DNA of 64,000 nucleotides from Candidatus Peregrinibacteria bacterium (GTDB taxonomy: Bacteria; Patescibacteriota; Gracilibacteria; UBA1369; LOWO2-01-FULL-3). Below are positions 4,623 to 14,681 of this stretch, one piece after another. The position numbers were made by a program, and so were the translations under genes. Position 1 is the first letter of the stretch. The number at the start of each line of letters is the position of its first letter. The stretch lies in the NCBI GenBank assembly GCA_043810515.1, contig JBDRNZ010000001.1, positions 1,064-65,063 of the forward strand, in the 5' to 3' direction. The notes below the pieces were generated by a model. The model was not told the origin of the DNA. It made no database searches and saw only the letters and a program-made list of their open reading frames with translations.

Positions 4623-4737
4623 GCGTAATTTATGATTTGTTTTATTATAACACAAAACCGCCAAAGCGTCAATGTGCGACTTGGGCAGGACAAGCCAAAA
4701 AGTGGTATAATTCTTTTGAAAAAATAACCAATTTTCT

Positions 4738-6590: not shown

Positions 6591-7529
6591 ATGATCACGG
6601 AATCAAAAATTGAAAAAATTAAAAGCAGAAAAGCTCCTTTTACATGGATATCAATAACTAATCCGGACACGCGGGCCACGGCTTATTTGAAAAAAACATA
6701 TAAATTTCATCACCTCGACCTGGAGGATTGTTTGTCGAAAGAAAGCGAAAGGTCAAAAATCGACGAATATGAAAATTATCTTTTCATAGTCCTGCACATA
6801 CCTGTCGTACAGGGTCGGAAAAAAACAGTAAAATCATCAGAAATATATATTTTCATAGGACAGAATTTTGTTGTGACGATCCACAGAAACGATCCGATCA
6901 TAGAAAAACTTTTCGAAACCTGCAAAAAAAAGAAAAAAATCAGGGAAAATTACATGGACAAGGGAAGCGGATATTTTCTTTACATGATTATTGATGACCT
7001 TTTTGAATCGGGATTTCCAACTCTGGACGATCTCGGAAAACAACTGAATGAACTTGAGGTAGATGTTTTTGAAAGCGATTATTCGAAGGACAGACTCAAG
7101 GATATTTTAATGTTGAAAAAAGACATTATCAATTTCAGACGCATAATCATGCCGCAGCGTGCGATAATTGCCCAGCTCGAGCACAAAAACAAGAAATTTC
7201 TGCCTGAAAATCTGGATGTTTATTTCGATGATATAGTGGATAAAATAGAGAAAATCTGGAACAGACTGGAAAACCTGCAGGAACTGGCGGTTTCTCTTCA
7301 GGATACAAACGAATCGATTCTGTCCCACAATACAAATAATGTCATAAAAATCCTGACTATTTTTTCGGTAATTATGCTTCCGCTGACCTTTATTACAGGG
7401 TTTTATGGAATGAATATAATAAACCTGCCGCTTGCGGAGCATCCGCTGGCTTTTCCTGTAATAACAGGTATTTTAATAGGAATAGTGGTGACGATGATAA
7501 GCTATTTTAGATATAAAAGGTGGATATAA
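6591..7529 (+). CDS. corA: CorA-family magnesium/cobalt transporter
   Basis: 312 aa. YGMN motif (FYGMNIINLP) between two C-terminal TM helices. Confidence 0.9.
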   Translation: MITESKIEKIKSRKAPFTWISITNPDTRATAYLKKTYKFHHLDLEDCLSKESERSKIDEYENYLFIVLHIPVVQGRKKTVKSSEIYIFIGQNFVVTIHRNDPIIEKLFETCKKKKKIRENYMDKGSGYFLYMIIDDLFESGFPTLDDLGKQLNELEVDVFESDYSKDRLKDILMLKKDIINFRRIIMPQRAIIAQLEHKNKKFLPENLDVYFDDIVDKIEKIWNRLENLQELAVSLQDTNESILSHNTNNVIKILTIFSVIMLPLTFITGFYGMNIINLPLAEHPLAFPVITGILIGIVVTMISYFRYKRWI

Positions 7530-7608
7530 GCCGATTTTCACTCTTGCCAAAAATCAGATTTTTGTGTAAACTTACGCCTGCAAATTTTTTTCCCAAAAAT
7601 ACTATATT

Positions 7609-7878
7609 ATGGAACGAACCAAAAAAAAGAAAGTAATGACAAAATACGGAACCCATGAAAAAGACACGGGTTCGTCACAGGTGCAGGTTGCAATCCTTAC
7701 GGAAAGGATAAACGATCTTTCAAAACACCTTGAAACGCATCCGAAGGATGACCATTCAAGAAAAGGCCTTTTGAAATTGGTGGGAAAAAGGAGAAAACAT
7801 CTGAATTATCTGAAAATGCACAAAAAAGATAATTACGAAAAGCTTCTTGGAGAACTTAAGCTGAGAAAATTAAAATAG
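7609..7878 (+). CDS. rpsO: 30S ribosomal protein S15
   Basis: 89 aa. DTGSSQVQVAILTERINDLSKHL...HSRKGLLKLVGKRRKHLNYL matches the S15 pattern. Located upstream of pnp, as in many bacteria. Confidence 0.95.
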   Translation: MERTKKKKVMTKYGTHEKDTGSSQVQVAILTERINDLSKHLETHPKDDHSRKGLLKLVGKRRKHLNYLKMHKKDNYEKLLGELKLRKLK

Positions 7879-7918
7879 CGCTCTTTTAAATATTTTTCCG
7901 CCGGCCACAGGAGGAAAC

Positions 7919-7980
7919 TCTTAAGTAACAGGCTTGAAAGAACTAAGAAAGTTTAGTTCTTTAAATCTTGTCACTTGAGA
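7919..7980 (+). promoter_or_regulatory. Long imperfect hairpin in the rpsO-pnp spacer (about 28 bp, 3 mismatches, perfect 10-bp apical stem 7937-7946/7953-7962)
   Basis: Pairing worked out by hand. Its position is analogous to the RNase III-processed pnp leader hairpin of E. coli. It may also act as the rpsO terminator. Confidence 0.6.
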
Positions 7981-8030
7981 CGGTTTTGGTTCCTGTTTAC
8001 CGGCTGTAATTCCTAACAATTAAGTAAACT

Positions 8031-10223
8031 ATGGAACCAAAAATTGCGAAAATGACCCTCGCGGGACGGGAATTTAGTATCACGAACTCCCCGATTTCTT
8101 CCTACGCAAACGGTTATGCGACGGTATCACTGGGAGATACTGTAATTATGGCGAATGCGTTGATTTCCGAAAAAGGAAAAGAAGGCGCGGATTTTTTCCC
8201 GATGACGGTGGATTATGAGGAGAATATGTATGCCGCCGGAAAAATCAAAGGCAGCCGTTTTATCAAACGTGAAGGTCGTCCTTCCGAAAATGCCATTTTG
8301 ATATCGCGTATGATAGACAGGCCGATACGTCCGCTTTTTCCGAAAGGAGCGACAAATGAAGTTCAGATTATCTGCACGGCTTTGTCAGCTGATCTGGAAG
8401 TGGAACCGAGTACAACCGCTTTAAACGCCGCATCCGTGGCGCTGATGTTAACCGGCGCGCCGTTTGATGGCCCTATTGGAGCTGTGCGAATGGGATACAA
8501 AGATGAAAAATTGATTGTAAATCCAACATATAAGGAATGTGACGAAGGAAAATTGAACCTTGTTGTAGCTGGAACTATTGATGCAATCACAATGGTTGAG
8601 GCATCCGCCGATGAAGTAAGCGAGGACATTATAATTCAGGCGCTCGACATGGCCCACAAGCATATAAAAGAGATATGCCAGCTTCAGCTTGATTACGTCA
8701 AACAGTTCGAAATTGATAAAATGGAAATGACCGTAGTGAAACCTTCAGCGGAAACTGTTGAAAAAGTAAAAGAATTCGTTACGGACGACATGCTCGCGAA
8801 AATTAAAGGAAAAACAAAAAAAGATGTAAAGGCGGAGCTCCACAAACTCGAAGAAGCTCTTCTTGAGCATTTTGCGGCTGAAATCGAAAATGAAAGTTTG
8901 TCCGAACGCGAACTGAAAGAAGTTCTCAATAACCTTTTAGAGACCGGCATGAGAAAAAGAGTTCTTGAAAAAGAGGAACGTATTGACGGCAGAAAACTCG
9001 ATGAAATACGTCCGATTACGGTGATAATGGATGTTTTACCCAGAACTCACGGCTCCGCAATTTTCCAGCGCGGCGAAACAATGGCTTTGACGGTCACAAC
9101 GCTTGGCGGCCCCGGCGATGCTCAGATGATAGACACGATGGATAGGGACATTACTAAGAGATACATGCATCATTATCATTTTCCGCCATTTGCAACGGGC
9201 GACATAAAACCGCTCCGCGGCCCCGGCCGACGTGAAATCGGTCATGGAGATCTTGCGGAACGTGCGCTCAAGCCCGTTCTTCCAACGGAAGAGGAATTTC
9301 CATACACGATGTGGCTCGTTTCCGAAATCGTAAGATGTAACGGATCAAGCTCTATGGCTTCCGTATGCGGATCAACGCTCTCACTAATGTGCGCGGGCGT
9401 GCCGATAACGCGTCCGGTTGCCGGAATCGCGATGGGTCTTATCACGGACAAAGAAAATACTTCAAATTATAAAATTTTAAGTGACATCCAGGGACTGGAG
9501 GATTTTGCAGGAGACATGGATTTCAAAGTTACAGGAACAGCTGACGGAATCACCGCGCTTCAGATGGACATAAAAGTGAAGGGACTTTCTCTCTCTATCA
9601 TGAGGGAAGCTCTTTCAAAAGCCAAAGAAGGACGGGATTTTATCATGGCGAAAATGCTTGAAGTCATCCCCGAGCCAAGAAAAGAGCTTTCAAAATACGC
9701 GCCGCTTATTATGACCATCAAGATTCATCCCGACATGATCAGGGTTGTTATCGGCAAAGGCGGCGAAACCATTCAGGAAATCACCGCAAAATGCAATGTT
9801 GAAATCGACATAAACGATGATGGAATAGTCACAATCACCGCTCCCGACCAGGAAAGCGGCAAAAAGGCCGTGGACTGGGTCAAAAGAATCACATACGTTC
9901 CAAAGGCCGGTGAAGTTTTTGAAGGAAAGGTGACCCGTATCCTTGATTTCGGAGCGATGGTCGAATTTCTTCCCGGAAAAGAAGGACTTGTACACGTTTC
10001 ACAATTGGCAAAAGAAAGAGTGAACAAGGTCGAAGATGTAGTTACCGAAGGCGACATTTTGAAAGTAAAATTGATGGAAGTTGATAGAATGGGAAGATAT
10101 AATCTTTCACACAAGGCCACTCTTGAAGGAGCCGCAGCTCAGCCACAGATGCCATCAAGCAGCCAGATCGGCGGTGAAAAAGGCAAAAAGGTGGACGGCA
10201 CTTCCTCCGTAAGGGAAGTCTAA
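8031..10223 (+). CDS. pnp: Polyribonucleotide nucleotidyltransferase (PNPase)
   Basis: 730 aa. Two RNase PH-like halves, a KH region (VIGKGGETIQEI) and a C-terminal S1 region (GEVFEGKVTRILDFGAMVEF). Confidence 0.97.
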   Translation: MEPKIAKMTLAGREFSITNSPISSYANGYATVSLGDTVIMANALISEKGKEGADFFPMTVDYEENMYAAGKIKGSRFIKREGRPSENAILISRMIDRPIRPLFPKGATNEVQIICTALSADLEVEPSTTALNAASVALMLTGAPFDGPIGAVRMGYKDEKLIVNPTYKECDEGKLNLVVAGTIDAITMVEASADEVSEDIIIQALDMAHKHIKEICQLQLDYVKQFEIDKMEMTVVKPSAETVEKVKEFVTDDMLAKIKGKTKKDVKAELHKLEEALLEHFAAEIENESLSERELKEVLNNLLETGMRKRVLEKEERIDGRKLDEIRPITVIMDVLPRTHGSAIFQRGETMALTVTTLGGPGDAQMIDTMDRDITKRYMHHYHFPPFATGDIKPLRGPGRREIGHGDLAERALKPVLPTEEEFPYTMWLVSEIVRCNGSSSMASVCGSTLSLMCAGVPITRPVAGIAMGLITDKENTSNYKILSDIQGLEDFAGDMDFKVTGTADGITALQMDIKVKGLSLSIMREALSKAKEGRDFIMAKMLEVIPEPRKELSKYAPLIMTIKIHPDMIRVVIGKGGETIQEITAKCNVEIDINDDGIVTITAPDQESGKKAVDWVKRITYVPKAGEVFEGKVTRILDFGAMVEFLPGKEGLVHVSQLAKERVNKVEDVVTEGDILKVKLMEVDRMGRYNLSHKATLEGAAAQPQMPSSSQIGGEKGKKVDGTSSVREV

Positions 10224-10242
10224 AACCAGCCTTAAAAATTCA

Positions 10243-10316
10243 GCGGGTATCGTATAACGGCATTACATCGCCTTGCCATGGCGAAGACACGGGTTCAATT
10301 CCCGTTACCCGCTCCA
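10243..10316 (+). tRNA. tRNA-Gly (anticodon GCC), CCA encoded
   Basis: Cloverleaf by hand: acceptor GCGGGTA/TACCCGC, anticodon stem TCGCC/GGCGA with loop TTGCCAT, T arm ACGGG-TTCAATT-CCCGT, then TCCA. Confidence 0.93.
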
Positions 10317-10786: not shown

Positions 10787-12241
10787 ATGTCAAAAAAAGT
10801 TACAAATCTCTTTCTCGTAGCCATTTTTACATTTTTAATGGTGGGGTTTGGCGCGGGACTTGGAAAAGTTATGCACACTCAGGTTATAAGTACCGATGAG
10901 AAACCGCGCATTTCCGAACTTTACAAATTCGAGATTGTCGAGCAGGAAAGCGAGGTTATTCATGTTAAGCCGGGGGGGACAAAAGAACTCAAGGTTATTC
11001 TGAAAAATACCGGCAAAGCCCAGTGGGATCTTGCGGAAAATTCCGAAAACAGATTTGTTTTGGGAACTTATCTGCCCCGCGAACGGGAAAGTGCTTTTTA
11101 CAGTGCCGGCCTGGATAAATGGAAAAATTCGTCACAGATTTATATTGAAGATGAAAATGGAAAAACAGTCATAGCTCCGGACGAAACGACAACATTCAAA
11201 TTCGAGATAAAAGCGCCGGCTGCCGCAGGTTTTTACAGAGAAAATTTTGCGCCGGTGGTCACCGGAATAAAAGGTCTCAACAACGCCATACTGACTTTCG
11301 ACATCGTCGTTGATGGGGATTTTGCCAAAAACTACGATTATGAAATTGTTGAAAAAACCGAAAAGGAAAGCCTGCCTTTAAACGGCACGGCGGAAATCAG
11401 CATGAAATTAAAAAACACAGGAAGTGTGCCGTGGTACGGCGACGGCCCGTTCCCGATAAAACTTGCCGCGACGGACACCCAGACCGCGGAATTATTCTCA
11501 CCGGAAGGCGGGATGATCGGAGCGCTTGAGGTTTTGCCCGGAGAAACAGCCAATTTTACATTTAAAATTTTATCTCCGGTAGCAGCCGGTACTTACGAAA
11601 TGCGCCTGCAGCTCGCGGCTGAAAACCTTTTTGTGTTTGAATCAAGTCCTTTGATTTGGAACATAAATGTTGCCGCAAAACGCGTGGCGCTGACTTTTGA
11701 TGACGGATACGGCGATATAAACGGTTTTCTGGACGTGCTGAAGGAACAGGATGTAAAAGCAACTTTCTTTATGCTCGGATGTGTGGCCCAGAACAGACCG
11801 GAGGAAATGAAAAGAATTGTTGAGGAGGGTCATCTTCTGGCGAGCCACAGTTATAATCATCCGGATTTTAGAACGCTTGGCGCGGACACGATCCGCTGGC
11901 AGCTGAACACCACGAGGGACATCATGAAAGAAATAACGGGACTCGATGTGTATCCGTATTTCCGTTACCCGTACGGCGCGCGCAATGCCAGCACGGACGC
12001 GGTTTTGGCACAGGACGGCTGGAAATATTTCCATTGGACAAACGGTACCGGCGACTGGAAATTTCATGAAAATTCAGCGGCCGGCCGTCAGCACATTTAT
12101 CATTACGCAACATCAAATCCTCCGGATCAGGCTATTGTCCTGATGCATGTTATAAGCCGGTCAACCCTCGCGGTTCTGCCAAACATAATCGAATGGTATC
12201 GCAATCACGGCTACTCTTTTGTCACAGTCGACGAACTTTAA
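10787..12241 (+). CDS. Secreted polysaccharide/peptidoglycan deacetylase (NodB domain) with two N-terminal Ig-like repeat modules
   Basis: 484 aa. N-terminal TM/signal. NodB motifs VALTFDDGY and HSYNHPDF. Confidence 0.85.
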
Positions 12242-12348
12242 AGAATTTACTATTCGAAAAGTTTGGGCTATTATCAACACCGTCTTTTAAAAAAATAAAT
12301 TTTTATATATGGACGATAAAAAAGGCGGATGCTGCTAATAAAAATTTT

Positions 12349-12960
12349 ATGAATAAAAAACCTTACACACTACCGGCTTTGCCGTACGATTTTAACGCAC
12401 TCGAGCCATACATTTCGGCGCAGCAGCTTCAAATTCATCACGATAAACACCATCAGGGCTACGTAAACGGAGCGAATGCAGTTTTTGAAAAACTCGAAAC
12501 CGCGCGCAAAGAAGGAGCGGAGCTTGATATGAAATCCGTATTGAAAAATCTGTCTTTCAATGTGGGCGGACATATTCTCCATTCTCTTTTTTGGGCGAAT
12601 ATGGCGCCGGCAGGAAATGGTGGTGGCGGCGAGCCGCAGGGAGCTCTGGCAGAAAGCATTACCACTGAATTCGGAAGTTTTGCACGTTTCAAGACAGAAT
12701 TTTCCGCAGCCGCGGCAAGCGTCGAAGGATCCGGCTGGGCCGCGCTTTTTCTCGACAAAATGACAAACCGCCCAGTCATCATGCAGATTGAAAAACATAA
12801 TGTAAACATCGCGCCCGGTTTACCTTTGCTTTTGGTGATCGACGTTTGGGAACATGCCTACTATCTCGATTACAAAAATGAAAGAGGAAAATTTATCGAA
12901 GCCTTCTGGAATATCGTGAACTGGGAGGAGGTCGGGAAAAGTCTTGAACTTCACGGTTGA
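12349..12960 (+). CDS. sod: Fe/Mn-family superoxide dismutase
   Basis: Start chosen at [23 protein letters not shown], which is 53 codons into ORF 12193..12960. Motifs HHDKHH and [11 protein letters not shown]. Confidence 0.93.
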
Positions 12961-12985
12961 CATCATTATTAAAATATACTATAAT
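12957..12985 (+). promoter_or_regulatory. Consensus sigma70 promoter TTGACA-17-TATAAT with no ORF behind it
   Basis: TTGACA at 12957-12962 overlaps the sod stop codon. 17-nt spacer, then TATAAT at 12980-12985. Confidence 0.6.
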
Positions 12986-12991
12986 GTAAGT

Positions 12992-13576
12992 GTTAAAGGT
13001 TTTCGAAAAACAAAAACAAAAGATCATTTACATCATCGGCCAAAAATTTTCTCCGGAGCGAGCTGTGCTCGCAAAGATTACAAGACTCCAGCTTCTATCT
13101 CACGATTCTTGTTGTGAGTAGTGTACTCTTTCTGAGCGCAGCTCCCTCTGGAGAAGTATCTGTCTGCTTTTGCAGACAACATACTCGCAGTAGTTATGCG
13201 TTGTGAGACTCATAACTAAAAGCATTTCTATCTGTAAACGGGGCGGTGCCCGCTTGCGGTATAAATGATGTGAGTTTCTCTTCAAAGGGATAGTATCTTC
13301 CTGAGTATGCTTTGCATGGATAGATCGCAAGATCCATTCAGTAAGCTTTGTGTACTGTTCTCGTCGTAATATGGCGGTGACGTCGTATTGTTATGAGGGT
13401 GGCGGATTCGACTTCGGTCGGGCTGTCATGGAATCTCAAATCTCGTCCTTATAGTCTTGTTTTTTTCAGGTTCTTTAAGAAGAGGTACTTATGCAGTCGG
13501 GTTTTTTGCCCGGAGTGTGTCTTGGTATTTCTCCAGGGTAGCACCTCTTGCCACCCGCGATTCGTGGCTTTTTTTT
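12992..13576 (+). ncRNA. Candidate structured non-coding transcript (or very long mnmA leader), about 585 nt, family unknown
   Basis: Bounded by the promoter at 12957 and the hairpin+U8 at 13550-13576. No convincing sense ORF. Perfect stems at 13058-13072, 13155-13185, 13191-13218 and 13316-13337. The start coordinate is only inferred from the -10 position. Confidence 0.4.
13550..13576 (+). terminator. Putative intrinsic terminator (GCCAC-9 nt-GTGGC followed by T8)
   Basis: Short 5-bp stem plus an 8-T run, read directly. Lies 41 nt upstream of the mnmA ATG. Confidence 0.5.
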
Positions 13577-13616
13577 GTGTTTTCGGATACAATCAACGAC
13601 CGCAAATATATTATTT

Positions 13617-14681
13617 ATGAAAATTGCAGTGCTCGTTTCAGGAGGTGTGGACAGCGCGGTCGCGCTTAGAATTTTAAAAGATCAGGGACACGATCTCACT
13701 GCATTTTATCTGAAAATCTGGCTTGAGGATGAATTGTCTTTTCTTGGGAATTGTCCATGGGAGGAGGATTTAAAATTTGTCCGCAAAATTTGCAAAGACA
13801 TAAATGTTCCGCTGAAAATTATTCCGCTTCAGAAGGAATATTTTGAAACGGTTGTGGAATATACAATCTCGGAGGTTTCGGCCGGCAGAACGCCGAATCC
13901 CGATATTATGTGCAACAGCCGGATCAAGTTCGGGCTTTTTTTGGACAAAATTGATAAAAGTTACGAAAAGGTGTCAACCGGCCATTACGCGCAGATCGAA
14001 GAACACGATGGTATTTTTTTTCTGAAATGTTCTCCGGATCCTATGAAAGACCAAACATATTTTCTTTCAAATCTGAATCAGGAACAGCTTTGCAAACTTA
14101 TTTTTCCGATCGGCCATCTCACAAAAAAATCAGTCAGAAAACTTGCGGCGGATTTCGATCTTCCCAACAAAGACAGAAAAGACAGCCAGGGAATTTGTTT
14201 TCTCGGAAAAATTCCATATGCCCAGTTTGTTAAACATTATCTTGGTGAAAAGCCCGGGGATATTATCGAATTTGAAACGGGCCGCCGTCTCGGAGAACAC
14301 GAAGGCTATTGGTATTACACGATAGGGCAGAGGAAAGGCATAAAACTTTCCGGCGGCCCTTACTTTGTCGTAAAAAAAGACATTCCCAAAAACATAATTT
14401 ACGTTTCGGCCAGTTACCACGCACCCGACAAAAAAAGAAACCTGCTCACGGTAGAAAATTTCAACTGGTTTGCCGACAGAGCACCGGCGCGCAAAAACCT
14501 GAAAGTCAAACTCCGCCACGGTCCCTATTTCCACAACGCCGCCTTAAACTTCATTTCCGAAAACAAAGCAGAGGTCACTCTCGATTCAGACGATCAGGGC
14601 ATCGCGCCGGGCCAGTTCGCGGCCTTCTACGACGGCGAAATATGCCTCGGCTCCGCCACGATTGCCGACCGCAAACTTTAA
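13617..14681 (+). CDS. mnmA: tRNA-specific 2-thiouridylase
   Basis: Start at MKIAVLVSGGVDSAVAL (PP-loop SGGVDS), 24 codons into ORF 13548..14681. MnmA-like throughout (GICFLG, YTIGQRKG). Confidence 0.95.
   Translation: MKIAVLVSGGVDSAVALRILKDQGHDLTAFYLKIWLEDELSFLGNCPWEEDLKFVRKICKDINVPLKIIPLQKEYFETVVEYTISEVSAGRTPNPDIMCNSRIKFGLFLDKIDKSYEKVSTGHYAQIEEHDGIFFLKCSPDPMKDQTYFLSNLNQEQLCKLIFPIGHLTKKSVRKLAADFDLPNKDRKDSQGICFLGKIPYAQFVKHYLGEKPGDIIEFETGRRLGEHEGYWYYTIGQRKGIKLSGGPYFVVKKDIPKNIIYVSASYHAPDKKRNLLTVENFNWFADRAPARKNLKVKLRHGPYFHNAALNFISENKAEVTLDSDDQGIAPGQFAAFYDGEICLGSATIADRKL

Follow-up and report, generated by a model that had tools for sequence, protein, structure and literature searches.

What is encoded in the long gap between a superoxide dismutase gene and mnmA in the genome of a Candidatus Peregrinibacteria bacterium? 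The question arose from a 64,000-nucleotide (nt) stretch of contig JBDRNZ010000001.1 (positions 1,064 to 65,063), referred to here as the window and numbered from its first letter. An earlier note on the window had proposed that the gap contains either a stand-alone large RNA or a 630-nt regulatory leader of mnmA. The analysis reported here indicates that positions 12992-13576 of the plus strand (approximately 585 nt) are probably a stand-alone, highly structured noncoding RNA gene, belonging to a new family of the Peregrinibacteria, Peribacteria, and Gracilibacteria type within the candidate phyla radiation (CPR). For the narrower claim, that this is an independent structured RNA gene of a new family, our confidence is high.

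A predicted RNA gene fills the gap upstream of mnmA

The segment 12961-13547 is the longest stretch of the window that is free of open reading frames (ORFs) of at least 90 amino acids (aa), the cutoff used for this measurement. ORFs inside the gap reach 76 aa at most, and Pfam returned no match for the six longest of them. The earlier note had described this as the longest noncoding gap and had seen no credible sense ORF in it, and both descriptions hold. The gap opens with an exact TTGACA-17-TATAAT promoter, as had been noted, and this is the sole 12-of-12 match in the window (0.01 expected). When one mismatch was allowed, seven sites were found, compared with 0.4 expected. The other six, at 4644-4672 (minus strand), 10732, 30709, 33594, 46770, and 57791, include all four of the promoters that had been cited for comparison (10732, 33594, 46770, and 57791). 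Near-consensus sigma-70 promoters are evidently in wide use by this organism. The superoxide dismutase ORF (12193-12960) ends in a TGA codon (12958-12960) that lies inside the -35 hexamer of the RNA promoter; the two genes therefore abut with no spacer.

At the other end of the gap, the hairpin followed by T8 that had been read as a terminator is real, and all eleven homologs that could be read to the 3' end have an intrinsic terminator at the equivalent place, past the conserved 3' element described below. The window terminator is followed, after 40 nt, by the ATG of mnmA at 13617. Folding of 12992-13576 gave a minimum free energy (MFE) of -209 kcal/mol, with z scores of -7.08 for the plus strand and -5.65 for the minus strand.

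Homologs define an RNA family

Homologs were sought in contigs designated L001 to L159, most of which are mnmA neighborhoods of related bacteria. Genome contigs were gathered with mnmA as the only bait for the genome collection, further contigs were added by look-up of close mnmA relatives, and metagenomes were scanned once with a DNA pattern built from the 5' motif. The sampling is biased toward mnmA neighborhoods, which limits any statement on members elsewhere. The mnmA product of the window matches a protein from a Candidatus Peregrinibacteria metagenome-assembled genome at 100% identity, which bears out the placement among the Patescibacteria (CPR) in the earlier note, and its nearest relatives in the genome collection are 57-65% identical and mostly labeled Peribacteria, Gracilibacteria, or Peregrinibacteria. 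Members were detected by nhmmer, by profiles, and by a covariance model (R1) of the P1 hairpin described below.

Comparison with relatives, a check that the earlier note had suggested, recovered homologs in at least 10 other Peregrinibacteria, Peribacteria, or Gracilibacteria contigs. These include L102 (E = 5e-72), whose mnmA is 75% identical, L113 and L114/L115 (E of approximately 1e-48 with the window as the query), and L002, which matched along its full length (nhmmer E = 1e-34). L108 and L111 have a short 3' domain, and L001 and L112 have a different short 3' part. L106/L107 are short, lack the 5' tail, and were found by eye as well as with the covariance model. The metagenome scan returned 21 matches, of which two, L092 and L095, are true homologs picked up by the motif alone. 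Pattern scans of IMG/VR viral contigs gave chance matches only and no true homolog.

A near-consensus promoter stands at an equal distance from the 5' motif in L102, L002, L113, L114, L111, L092, L095, L001, and L112, and L108 has approximately 110 extra nt between the promoter or start and the tail motif. Predicted RNA lengths range from approximately 330 nt (L106) to approximately 1,060 nt (L102). The family is defined by a 5' tail with G(A/T)TCATT, at least one P1 hairpin with the base TTTCTCCNGAGNGAGCTG / CAGCTCCCTCNGGAGAA, a 3' element of the form GTATTTCTC..AGCAC, the promoter, and the terminator. This full set is common to the window, L102, L002, L113, L114, L108, and L111. Partial members are L106/L107, which have no tail, and L092/L095 and L001/L112, in which the 3' part is divergent.

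The family combines an invariant 5' tail with covarying helices

Across the family, the 5' tail is laid out as A5CA5CA4-GAUCAUUUACAU, and its sequence is nearly invariant in ten members. The stretch 13006-13047 has no predicted structure (MFE of 0 kcal/mol). The A tract is 13, 14, 15, 16, or 19 nt long depending on the member, with differences in 1-nt steps, and L002 and L092 have no start codon at the tail. Because of these steps and missing start codons, the tail contains no conserved reading frame. Self-dimerization through the GATC palindrome in the tail was considered and rejected, since L001, L112, and L108 have GTTC instead.

The tail is followed by P1, a rod hairpin in which a helix of the GGUUACAG/CUGUAAUC type stands above the base and leads to a variable apex. 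Compensatory double changes were found in 16 of the 22 pairs of the P1 base (17 P1 hairpins). Under the covariance model, the window P1 scored 54.5 bits on the plus strand versus 40.5 bits on the minus strand, and the model favors the plus strand by 8-16 bits in every member. The GCGAGC/GCTCGC stem at 13058-13072, which had been listed as a helix of its own, is a local palindrome within the 5' strand of P1, and the comparative data favor P1. The number of P1 copies varies from one in the window to two in L112, three in L001, and four, in tandem, in L102. The tandem arrays span 2958-3534 in L102, 7373-7612 in L001, and 1608-1768 in L112; one of the four copies in the RNA of L102 (approximately 1.06 kb) is a short, 56-nt version. 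Of the P1 copies, the last alone has on its 3' side an (A/G)UAC, the match to GUAU in the 3' element.

The structure of the 3' domain was derived with RNAalifold from five full-length members. Standard pairs make up 94.9% of the cells over its 131 pairs. Changes on both sides were seen in 41 of the 131 pairs, counted in the same alignment that gave the predicted structure, compared with 19.2 ± 3.0 in shuffled controls (0 of 500 reached 41). When the 3' partners were slid as a second control, only 3-9 pairs had both-side changes. In the outer scaffold of H1, H3, and H4, 19 of 28 pairs are compensatory across nine sequences. Of the two long-range helices, H2 has 8 pairs, 2 with double changes and 90% of cells paired, and H5 has 14 pairs with 95.7% of cells paired. 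Pairing in H5 means that the Shine-Dalgarno-like AAGAAGAGG is sequestered in a helix. Covariation, which the earlier note had asked about, thus supports helices in both the P1 base and the 3' domain, and the alignments indicate that these helices are maintained by compensatory substitutions. The stems that the note had quoted are all present in the sequence, and those at 13191-13218 and 13316-13337 are conserved and covary. For the stem at 13155-13185, the core hairpin (13161-13178) is conserved, while the outer AGTAT/ATACT pairs are not conserved in homologs.

The inner part of the 3' domain is more restricted. This subdomain, with the conserved strings ATGGCGGA and GTCATGGAATCTCAA and the invariant strings AUGGCGGA and GUCAUGGAAUCUCAA, is present in five lineages only (the window, L102, L002, L113, and L114) and is reduced or replaced in L108, L111, L106, L092, and L001. 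The 3' element is conserved in the window, L102, L002, L113, L114, L108, L111, and L106. It reads GGUAUUUCUCCAG, with the family form GUAUUUCUCC..AGCAC, and is similar in sequence to the P1 base on its 5' side. In addition, it could form 13 bp with a segment made up of the P1 3' strand and GUAUC (13148-13160), and RNAalifold pairs it with the P1 3' strand once the P1 5' strand is omitted. In this model, the element could either compete for pairing or close the domain with a short helix that stacks below P1; the putative pairing shows no double changes. Positions of all parts are listed in Table 1.

Two further features of the 3' domain were considered and rejected. A small ORF of 16 codons that starts at the ATG at 13491, after the Shine-Dalgarno-like string, lacks its ATG in L002, the downstream hairpin covaries, and the string itself is paired in H5. 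A GNRA tetraloop with an 11-nt receptor (CCTAAG/TATGG), seen in L002-type members, is not conserved in the window or L102.

These data also bear on whether the region might instead be a decayed pseudogene, a mobile palindromic repeat, or a nonfunctional spacer. The region is unannotated and several short ORFs overlap it, as such a reading would have it. However, the helices carry compensatory substitutions, indels are not multiples of three, the longest ORFs have no Pfam match, and the promoter and terminator are conserved. Against a mobile repeat, P1-like hairpins were found at this locus only, with none elsewhere in the 64-kb window or in approximately 0.5 Mb of related loci. A phage element is countered by the lack of homologs in the viral contigs. 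For practical purposes, this explanation is refuted, and the chance that it is correct is negligible.

Table 1. Predicted parts of the RNA gene in the window
Feature	Position	Strand	Description
Sigma-70-type promoter	12957-12985	+	-35 TTGACA 12957-12962, 17-nt spacer, -10 TATAAT 12980-12985
Predicted transcription start	12990-12994	+	About 7 nt past the -10; placed from promoter geometry
Single-stranded 5' tail	13006-13033	+	A5-C-A5-C-A4, then GATCATTTACAT; conserved
P1 rod hairpin	13048-13156	+	~11-bp helix, 1x1 mismatch, ~12-bp helix, GAUUACA/UGUACUC helix, variable apex
3' domain	13157-13548	+	14 helices by RNAalifold, two of them long-range
H1 hairpin	13161-13178	+	CTGTCTGC-TTTT-GCAGACA; compensatory changes across 9 sequences
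H2, 5' strand	13179-13186	+	ACATACTC; long-range, encloses most of the 3' domain
H2, 3' strand	13513-13520	+	GAGTGTGT; partner of 13179-13186
H3 hairpin	13191-13218	+	TAGTTATG...CATAACTA; at least 4 pairs with double changes
H4 hairpin	13223-13267	+	19 pairs, 7 with double changes
H5, 5' strand	13269-13283	+	TGTGAGTTTCTCTTC; long-range, partner 13479-13493 (GAAGAGGTACTTATG)
Inner subdomain	13284-13478	+	Helices 6-12, including the GCAA-capped hairpin 13316-13337
H13 hairpin	13497-13513	+	TCGGG-TTTTTT-GCCCGG; 5 pairs, 3 with double changes
3' element	13524-13536	+	GGTATTTCTCCAG; read from the sequence
Small hairpin (helix 14)	13536-13546	+	GGGT-AGC-ACCT; one pair with a double change
Intrinsic terminator	13550-13576	+	GCCAC...GTGGC hairpin, then T8

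The RNA is probably an independent gene rather than an mnmA leader

MnmA thiolates the tRNAs (Glu, Lys, and Gln) that decode GAA, AAA, and CAA codons. In a cis-acting leader or attenuator, transcription from the strong promoter would continue across the structured region, mnmA expression would be controlled through regulated termination at the U8 hairpin, and the sensor might be the 5' tail, which can be read as GAA/AAA/CAA triplets. Several observations are in keeping with this explanation. The RNA lies on the same strand as mnmA at a distance of 40 nt in the window, 40 nt in L102, 28 nt in L114, 38 nt in L106, approximately 140 nt in L092, and approximately 320 nt in L113, and L092 and L095, found by motif without an mnmA bait, also adjoin mnmA. 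In the window, there is no good -35 between the terminator and mnmA, in agreement with the earlier note, which had seen no strong promoter for mnmA there. The window tail reads E-K-Q-K-Q-K within a 43-codon ORF that starts from a GTG at 12990.

As a general description, however, the leader failed when other members were compared. In L108 and L111, three minus-strand genes (encoding a 121-125-aa protein, VKOR, and a cupredoxin) stand between the RNA and mnmA. In L112, the intervening genes are on the same strand (a CsoR-like gene, a 119-aa ORF, and a copper ATPase), and in L002 and L001 the RNA is 1.0 and 2.3 kb from mnmA with other ORFs between, so that the interval in these three loci is 1-3 kb. 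A leader peptide that senses MnmA-dependent codons was rejected, because its frame is not conserved: ATG-GTT-TT starts occur in L102 and L001, but the A tracts differ in length by single nucleotides, and a start codon is missing from L002 and L092. In L113, L114, L106, and L102, a -10-like hexamer is located past the terminator, 7-8 nt before the mnmA ATG. An intrinsic terminator closes every member read to its 3' end, and a 14-helix domain is far beyond the needs of an attenuator. No conserved antiterminator alternative was found, and the GTGGC at 13400 of the window is not conserved. Finally, the window and L113 share the block corA-rpsO-pnp-tRNA ... RNA-mnmA-aminotransferase in the same order, and the adjacency of the RNA and mnmA may therefore be inherited gene order. 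Read-through into mnmA is possible in this window and is not needed to explain the element. Taken together, the intervening genes and the RNA's own terminators argue for an independent RNA gene, and the leader is quite improbable. Of the two possibilities that the earlier note had left standing, the stand-alone large RNA is the one borne out by conservation from promoter to terminator, abundant compensatory changes, and the lack of an Rfam match.

The same comparison applies to known leaders. A T-box leader has a Stem I specifier loop and a T-box sequence in an antiterminator, and it is located upstream of an aminoacyl-tRNA-related gene. Like T-boxes and the trp and his attenuators, the locus presents a promoter, a structured RNA, a terminator, and a gene, with tail codons tied to the substrates of the enzyme, and an AGGGTGG string in the window resembles the T-box core. 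It differs in having no conserved leader ORF, no contiguity with mnmA in several lineages, and a much larger RNA. The T-box assignment (RF00230) was rejected, since cmscan gave no hit and only the window has the AGGGTGG string.

The start of mnmA itself was also inspected. The -10-like hexamers before the ATG in L113, L114, L106, and L102 are TACAAT, TATAAT, or TAAAAT; in the window, the ATG is preceded by a TATATT that ends 5 nt away and by a TACAAT 22 nt upstream. No Shine-Dalgarno sequence precedes mnmA in the window (13577-13619), L102 (3961-4003), L106 (2582-2621), L113 (4975-5003), or L114 (3309-3338). This pattern suggests that the mnmA mRNAs of this group may be leaderless or nearly so.

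The RNA matches no known class

Rfam 15 was scanned at gathering thresholds and at E ≤ 10 for the window and at E ≤ 1 for six homologous loci. Nothing was found at gathering thresholds, and at E ≤ 10 there were only chance-level microRNA and long noncoding RNA matches. The earlier note had been unable to match the region by eye to RNase P, signal recognition particle (SRP), 6S, or canonical tmRNA, and cmscan likewise gave no such hit even at the loosest cutoff. A literature search found no description of a CPR or Peregrinibacteria RNA of this kind or of an mnmA-associated RNA, save the synteny of 6S RNA genes with mnmA in Lactobacillales. Since neither Rfam nor the literature contains a counterpart, the RNA is treated as a new family.

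A remaining concern was that the RNA might be a highly divergent 6S/Ms1-like RNA, tmRNA, or RNase P RNA that current models miss. A strong promoter and a terminator, a length in the range of tmRNA and RNase P RNA, and the long P1 rod are all features that such a housekeeping RNA would have. In tmRNA, the 5' and 3' ends form an acceptor stem with a G3:U70 pair, next to a T-arm with a GUUCRA loop and a tag frame with resume and stop codons. The window contains a tmRNA-like GGATTCGAC, and GGGTGGC (13398-13404) is complementary to GCCACCC (13551-13557). However, both this string and the complementarity are missing in homologs, which have ATGGCGGAC... at this place, and the complementarity has G3:C, not G:U as in tmRNA. 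The 1-nt indels of the tail leave no conserved tag frame, and the alignment contains no conserved T-arm or acceptor stem. ARAGORN found no tRNA or tmRNA in the region. With ARAGORN and Rfam negative and neither GGAUUCGAC nor GGGUGGC/GCCACCC conserved, tmRNA was rejected. As a separate observation, the stretch GGGTGGCGGATTCGAC (13398-13416), which is specific to the window, looks like a tmRNA 5' end, and neither it nor the complementarity to 13551-13557 occurs in any homolog. We treat the tmRNA-like string and the complementarity as coincidence.

In the 6S and Ms1 RNAs, the 5' and 3' ends pair into a rod whose large central bubble imitates an open promoter. The RNA described here shares with them a long rod hairpin, a strong promoter, and a stand-alone organization, and it differs in that its ends form no rod and in having an extra large 3' domain and a 5' tail. 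A 6S/Ms1 rod was rejected because no central bubble appeared in 17 P1 folds, whose internal loops are 1x1 and 2-3 nt only, the 5' end of the RNA is single stranded, and there was no cmscan hit. The RNase P RNA core consists of CR-I to CR-V with P4, and SRP RNA is recognized by its domain IV motifs; both were rejected, with no hit in the window or the six homologous loci. The link to mnmA is shared with 6S RNA, whose genes are located near mnmA in some Lactobacillales families (PMC8414754), and lineage-specific analogs of the Ms1 type long escaped homology models (PMC9130861). On balance, the divergent-housekeeping explanation is largely refuted and very unlikely.

The other large bacterial RNAs were compared in the same way. 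Matches to OLE, GOLLD, ROOL, HEARO, raiA, and all other Rfam 15 families were absent apart from the chance hits mentioned above, which fell far below gathering scores. OLE RNA (RF01071) is approximately 600 nt long, with many helices, invariant stretches, a narrow phylogenetic range, and a fixed gene neighborhood. The present RNA is like it in each of these respects, with helices set amid invariant stretches, and it too would presumably be an abundant stand-alone transcript that acts with partners. Some of this background on OLE RNA comes from PMC3413148. The two differ in that there is no sequence or structure match, the hosts are CPR bacteria rather than Firmicutes, and no oapA-like neighbor was seen; in addition, OLE RNA has neither the reiterated rod nor the A-rich tail. 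GOLLD and ROOL are similar in belonging to the 0.5-0.8-kb class, with complex multihelix folds found by comparative genomics. They are set apart by the lack of an Rfam match and, in IMG/VR, of any phage association; only L113 adjoins a tRNA gene. CrcZ, with AAnAAnAA motifs, and CsrB/RsmZ, with GGA hairpins, act as multisite decoys. Repeated modules (one to four copies of P1), a tail compatible with AAnAAnAA, a strong promoter, and its own terminator make the RNA comparable to CrcZ and CsrB. Here, however, the repeated unit is a double-stranded rod of 60-240 nt rather than a short single-stranded motif, each RNA has one A-rich tail, unlike CrcZ, and there is no homology.

Possible mode of action

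The arrangement of the family suggests a trans-acting RNA rather than a leader of mnmA. A cellular partner, which could be a protein or, for the tail, an RNA, would dock at the 5' tail and at the P1 rod, and the RNA as a whole may serve as a ribonucleoprotein scaffold or a decoy in the manner of 6S, CrcZ/CsrB, or OLE. The inner 3' subdomain would be a lineage-variable accessory. Docking or decoy action is favored because the tail and P1 base are conserved in sequence, not in pairing alone, and because the P1 copy number varies. The same combination is typical of RNAs that dock or sequester a partner, such as 6S, CrcZ, CsrB, and OLE. We hold this mechanism tentatively, with somewhat more doubt than confidence. 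That the family is a large (0.33-1.06-kb), modular RNA class of the Gracilibacteria/Peregrinibacteria branch, acting as a scaffold or global decoy whose tail and rods recruit a factor, comes close to an even chance in our judgment.

The tail could also act differently, as the seed of a trans-acting base-pairing regulator of U-rich target mRNAs, with the remainder of the RNA giving stability. The tail, including the segment AAAACAAAAACAAAAGAUCAUUUACAU that was considered as a seed, is the most conserved single-stranded segment in sequence, and in most members it lies 10-20 nt from the predicted 5' end, as in small RNAs with a seed at the 5' end. However, only one other 17-mer in the window matches the complement of the tail with three or fewer mismatches, and chance gives as many. 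Compared with typical base-pairing small RNAs, this one is also 5-10 times larger and has far more structure, L106/L107 have no tail, and the tail of L108 is preceded by approximately 110 nt. We consider base pairing unlikely. It ranks below the scaffold or decoy and above a cis link to mnmA. A functional tie between the persistent mnmA linkage and tRNA U34 thiolation, in which the AAA/CAA/GAA triplets of the tail might engage the anticodons of tRNA-Lys, tRNA-Gln, and tRNA-Glu, is speculative and would be a long shot.

Several points weigh against the reading of the locus as a stand-alone RNA gene that acts in trans. The transcript start, end, and abundance are all predicted, and the single near match to the tail complement in the window is at chance level. 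The covariation counts rest on approximately 10 distinct sequences beyond the window, some of them closely related. Profiles and the covariance model did not find the RNA near mnmA in approximately 10 similarly related loci (RNA-negative mnmA neighborhoods are L003-L007, L016, L103-L105, L109, L110, and L159), and the RNA is not universal within the group. Moreover, every known member precedes mnmA on its strand, at 28-323 nt from the mnmA start in six lineages, which leaves room for a cis or read-through link.

Few bacterial noncoding RNAs exceed approximately 400 nt and also have many conserved helices. The known large ones are the rRNAs, RNase P RNA, tmRNA, self-splicing introns, OLE, GOLLD, ROOL, and HEARO, and nearly all known large structured bacterial RNAs have proved biochemically unusual. 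CPR bacteria (Patescibacteria) have reduced genomes and are mostly episymbiotic, and their RNA biology is almost unexplored; our literature search found no large structured RNA class reported for them. In a streamlined genome, an RNA of 0.6 kb placed behind the strongest promoter-like site within 64 kb is probably plentiful and expensive to make and, hence, of importance to the cell. In complexity, its 14-helix accessory domain would be on a par with OLE RNA or RNase P RNA. The family provides an alignable target for CPR-wide covariance model searches, structure determination, and phylogenetic profiling of partner proteins. It also carries a warning for annotation, as the long "intergenic" stretch that precedes mnmA in these genomes is probably a gene.

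Genes around the RNA

Upstream of the RNA, the order corA, rpsO (S15), pnp (PNPase), tRNA was found at 6591-10316 in the window and at 236-4020 in L113. The window tRNA is tRNA-Gly, and a 484-aa polysaccharide-deacetylase-like gene and the superoxide dismutase gene are located between this block and the RNA. The tRNA of L113 immediately precedes the RNA promoter.

Copper-related genes (cupredoxin, VKOR, a CsoR-like repressor, and an HMA/E1-E2 copper ATPase) occur repeatedly between the RNA and mnmA, at 2564-3946 in L108, 3590-4844 in L111, and 1957-4985 in L112. In L103, they are found just upstream of mnmA (561-2885). The site resembles an insertion hot spot for a copper resistance cassette.

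Small ORFs also occur near mnmA. An ORF of 121-149 aa, with no Pfam domain in any case, is directly upstream of mnmA on the same strand in the RNA-negative loci L103 (3632-3997), L104 (3567-3983), L109 (3643-4008), and L159 (9533-9982) and in the RNA-positive L001 (9606-9992). A short ORF of approximately 32 codons stands between the RNA terminator and mnmA in L092 (770-895) and L095 (1190-1060, minus strand), and its predicted product is hydrophobic and probably membrane spanning.

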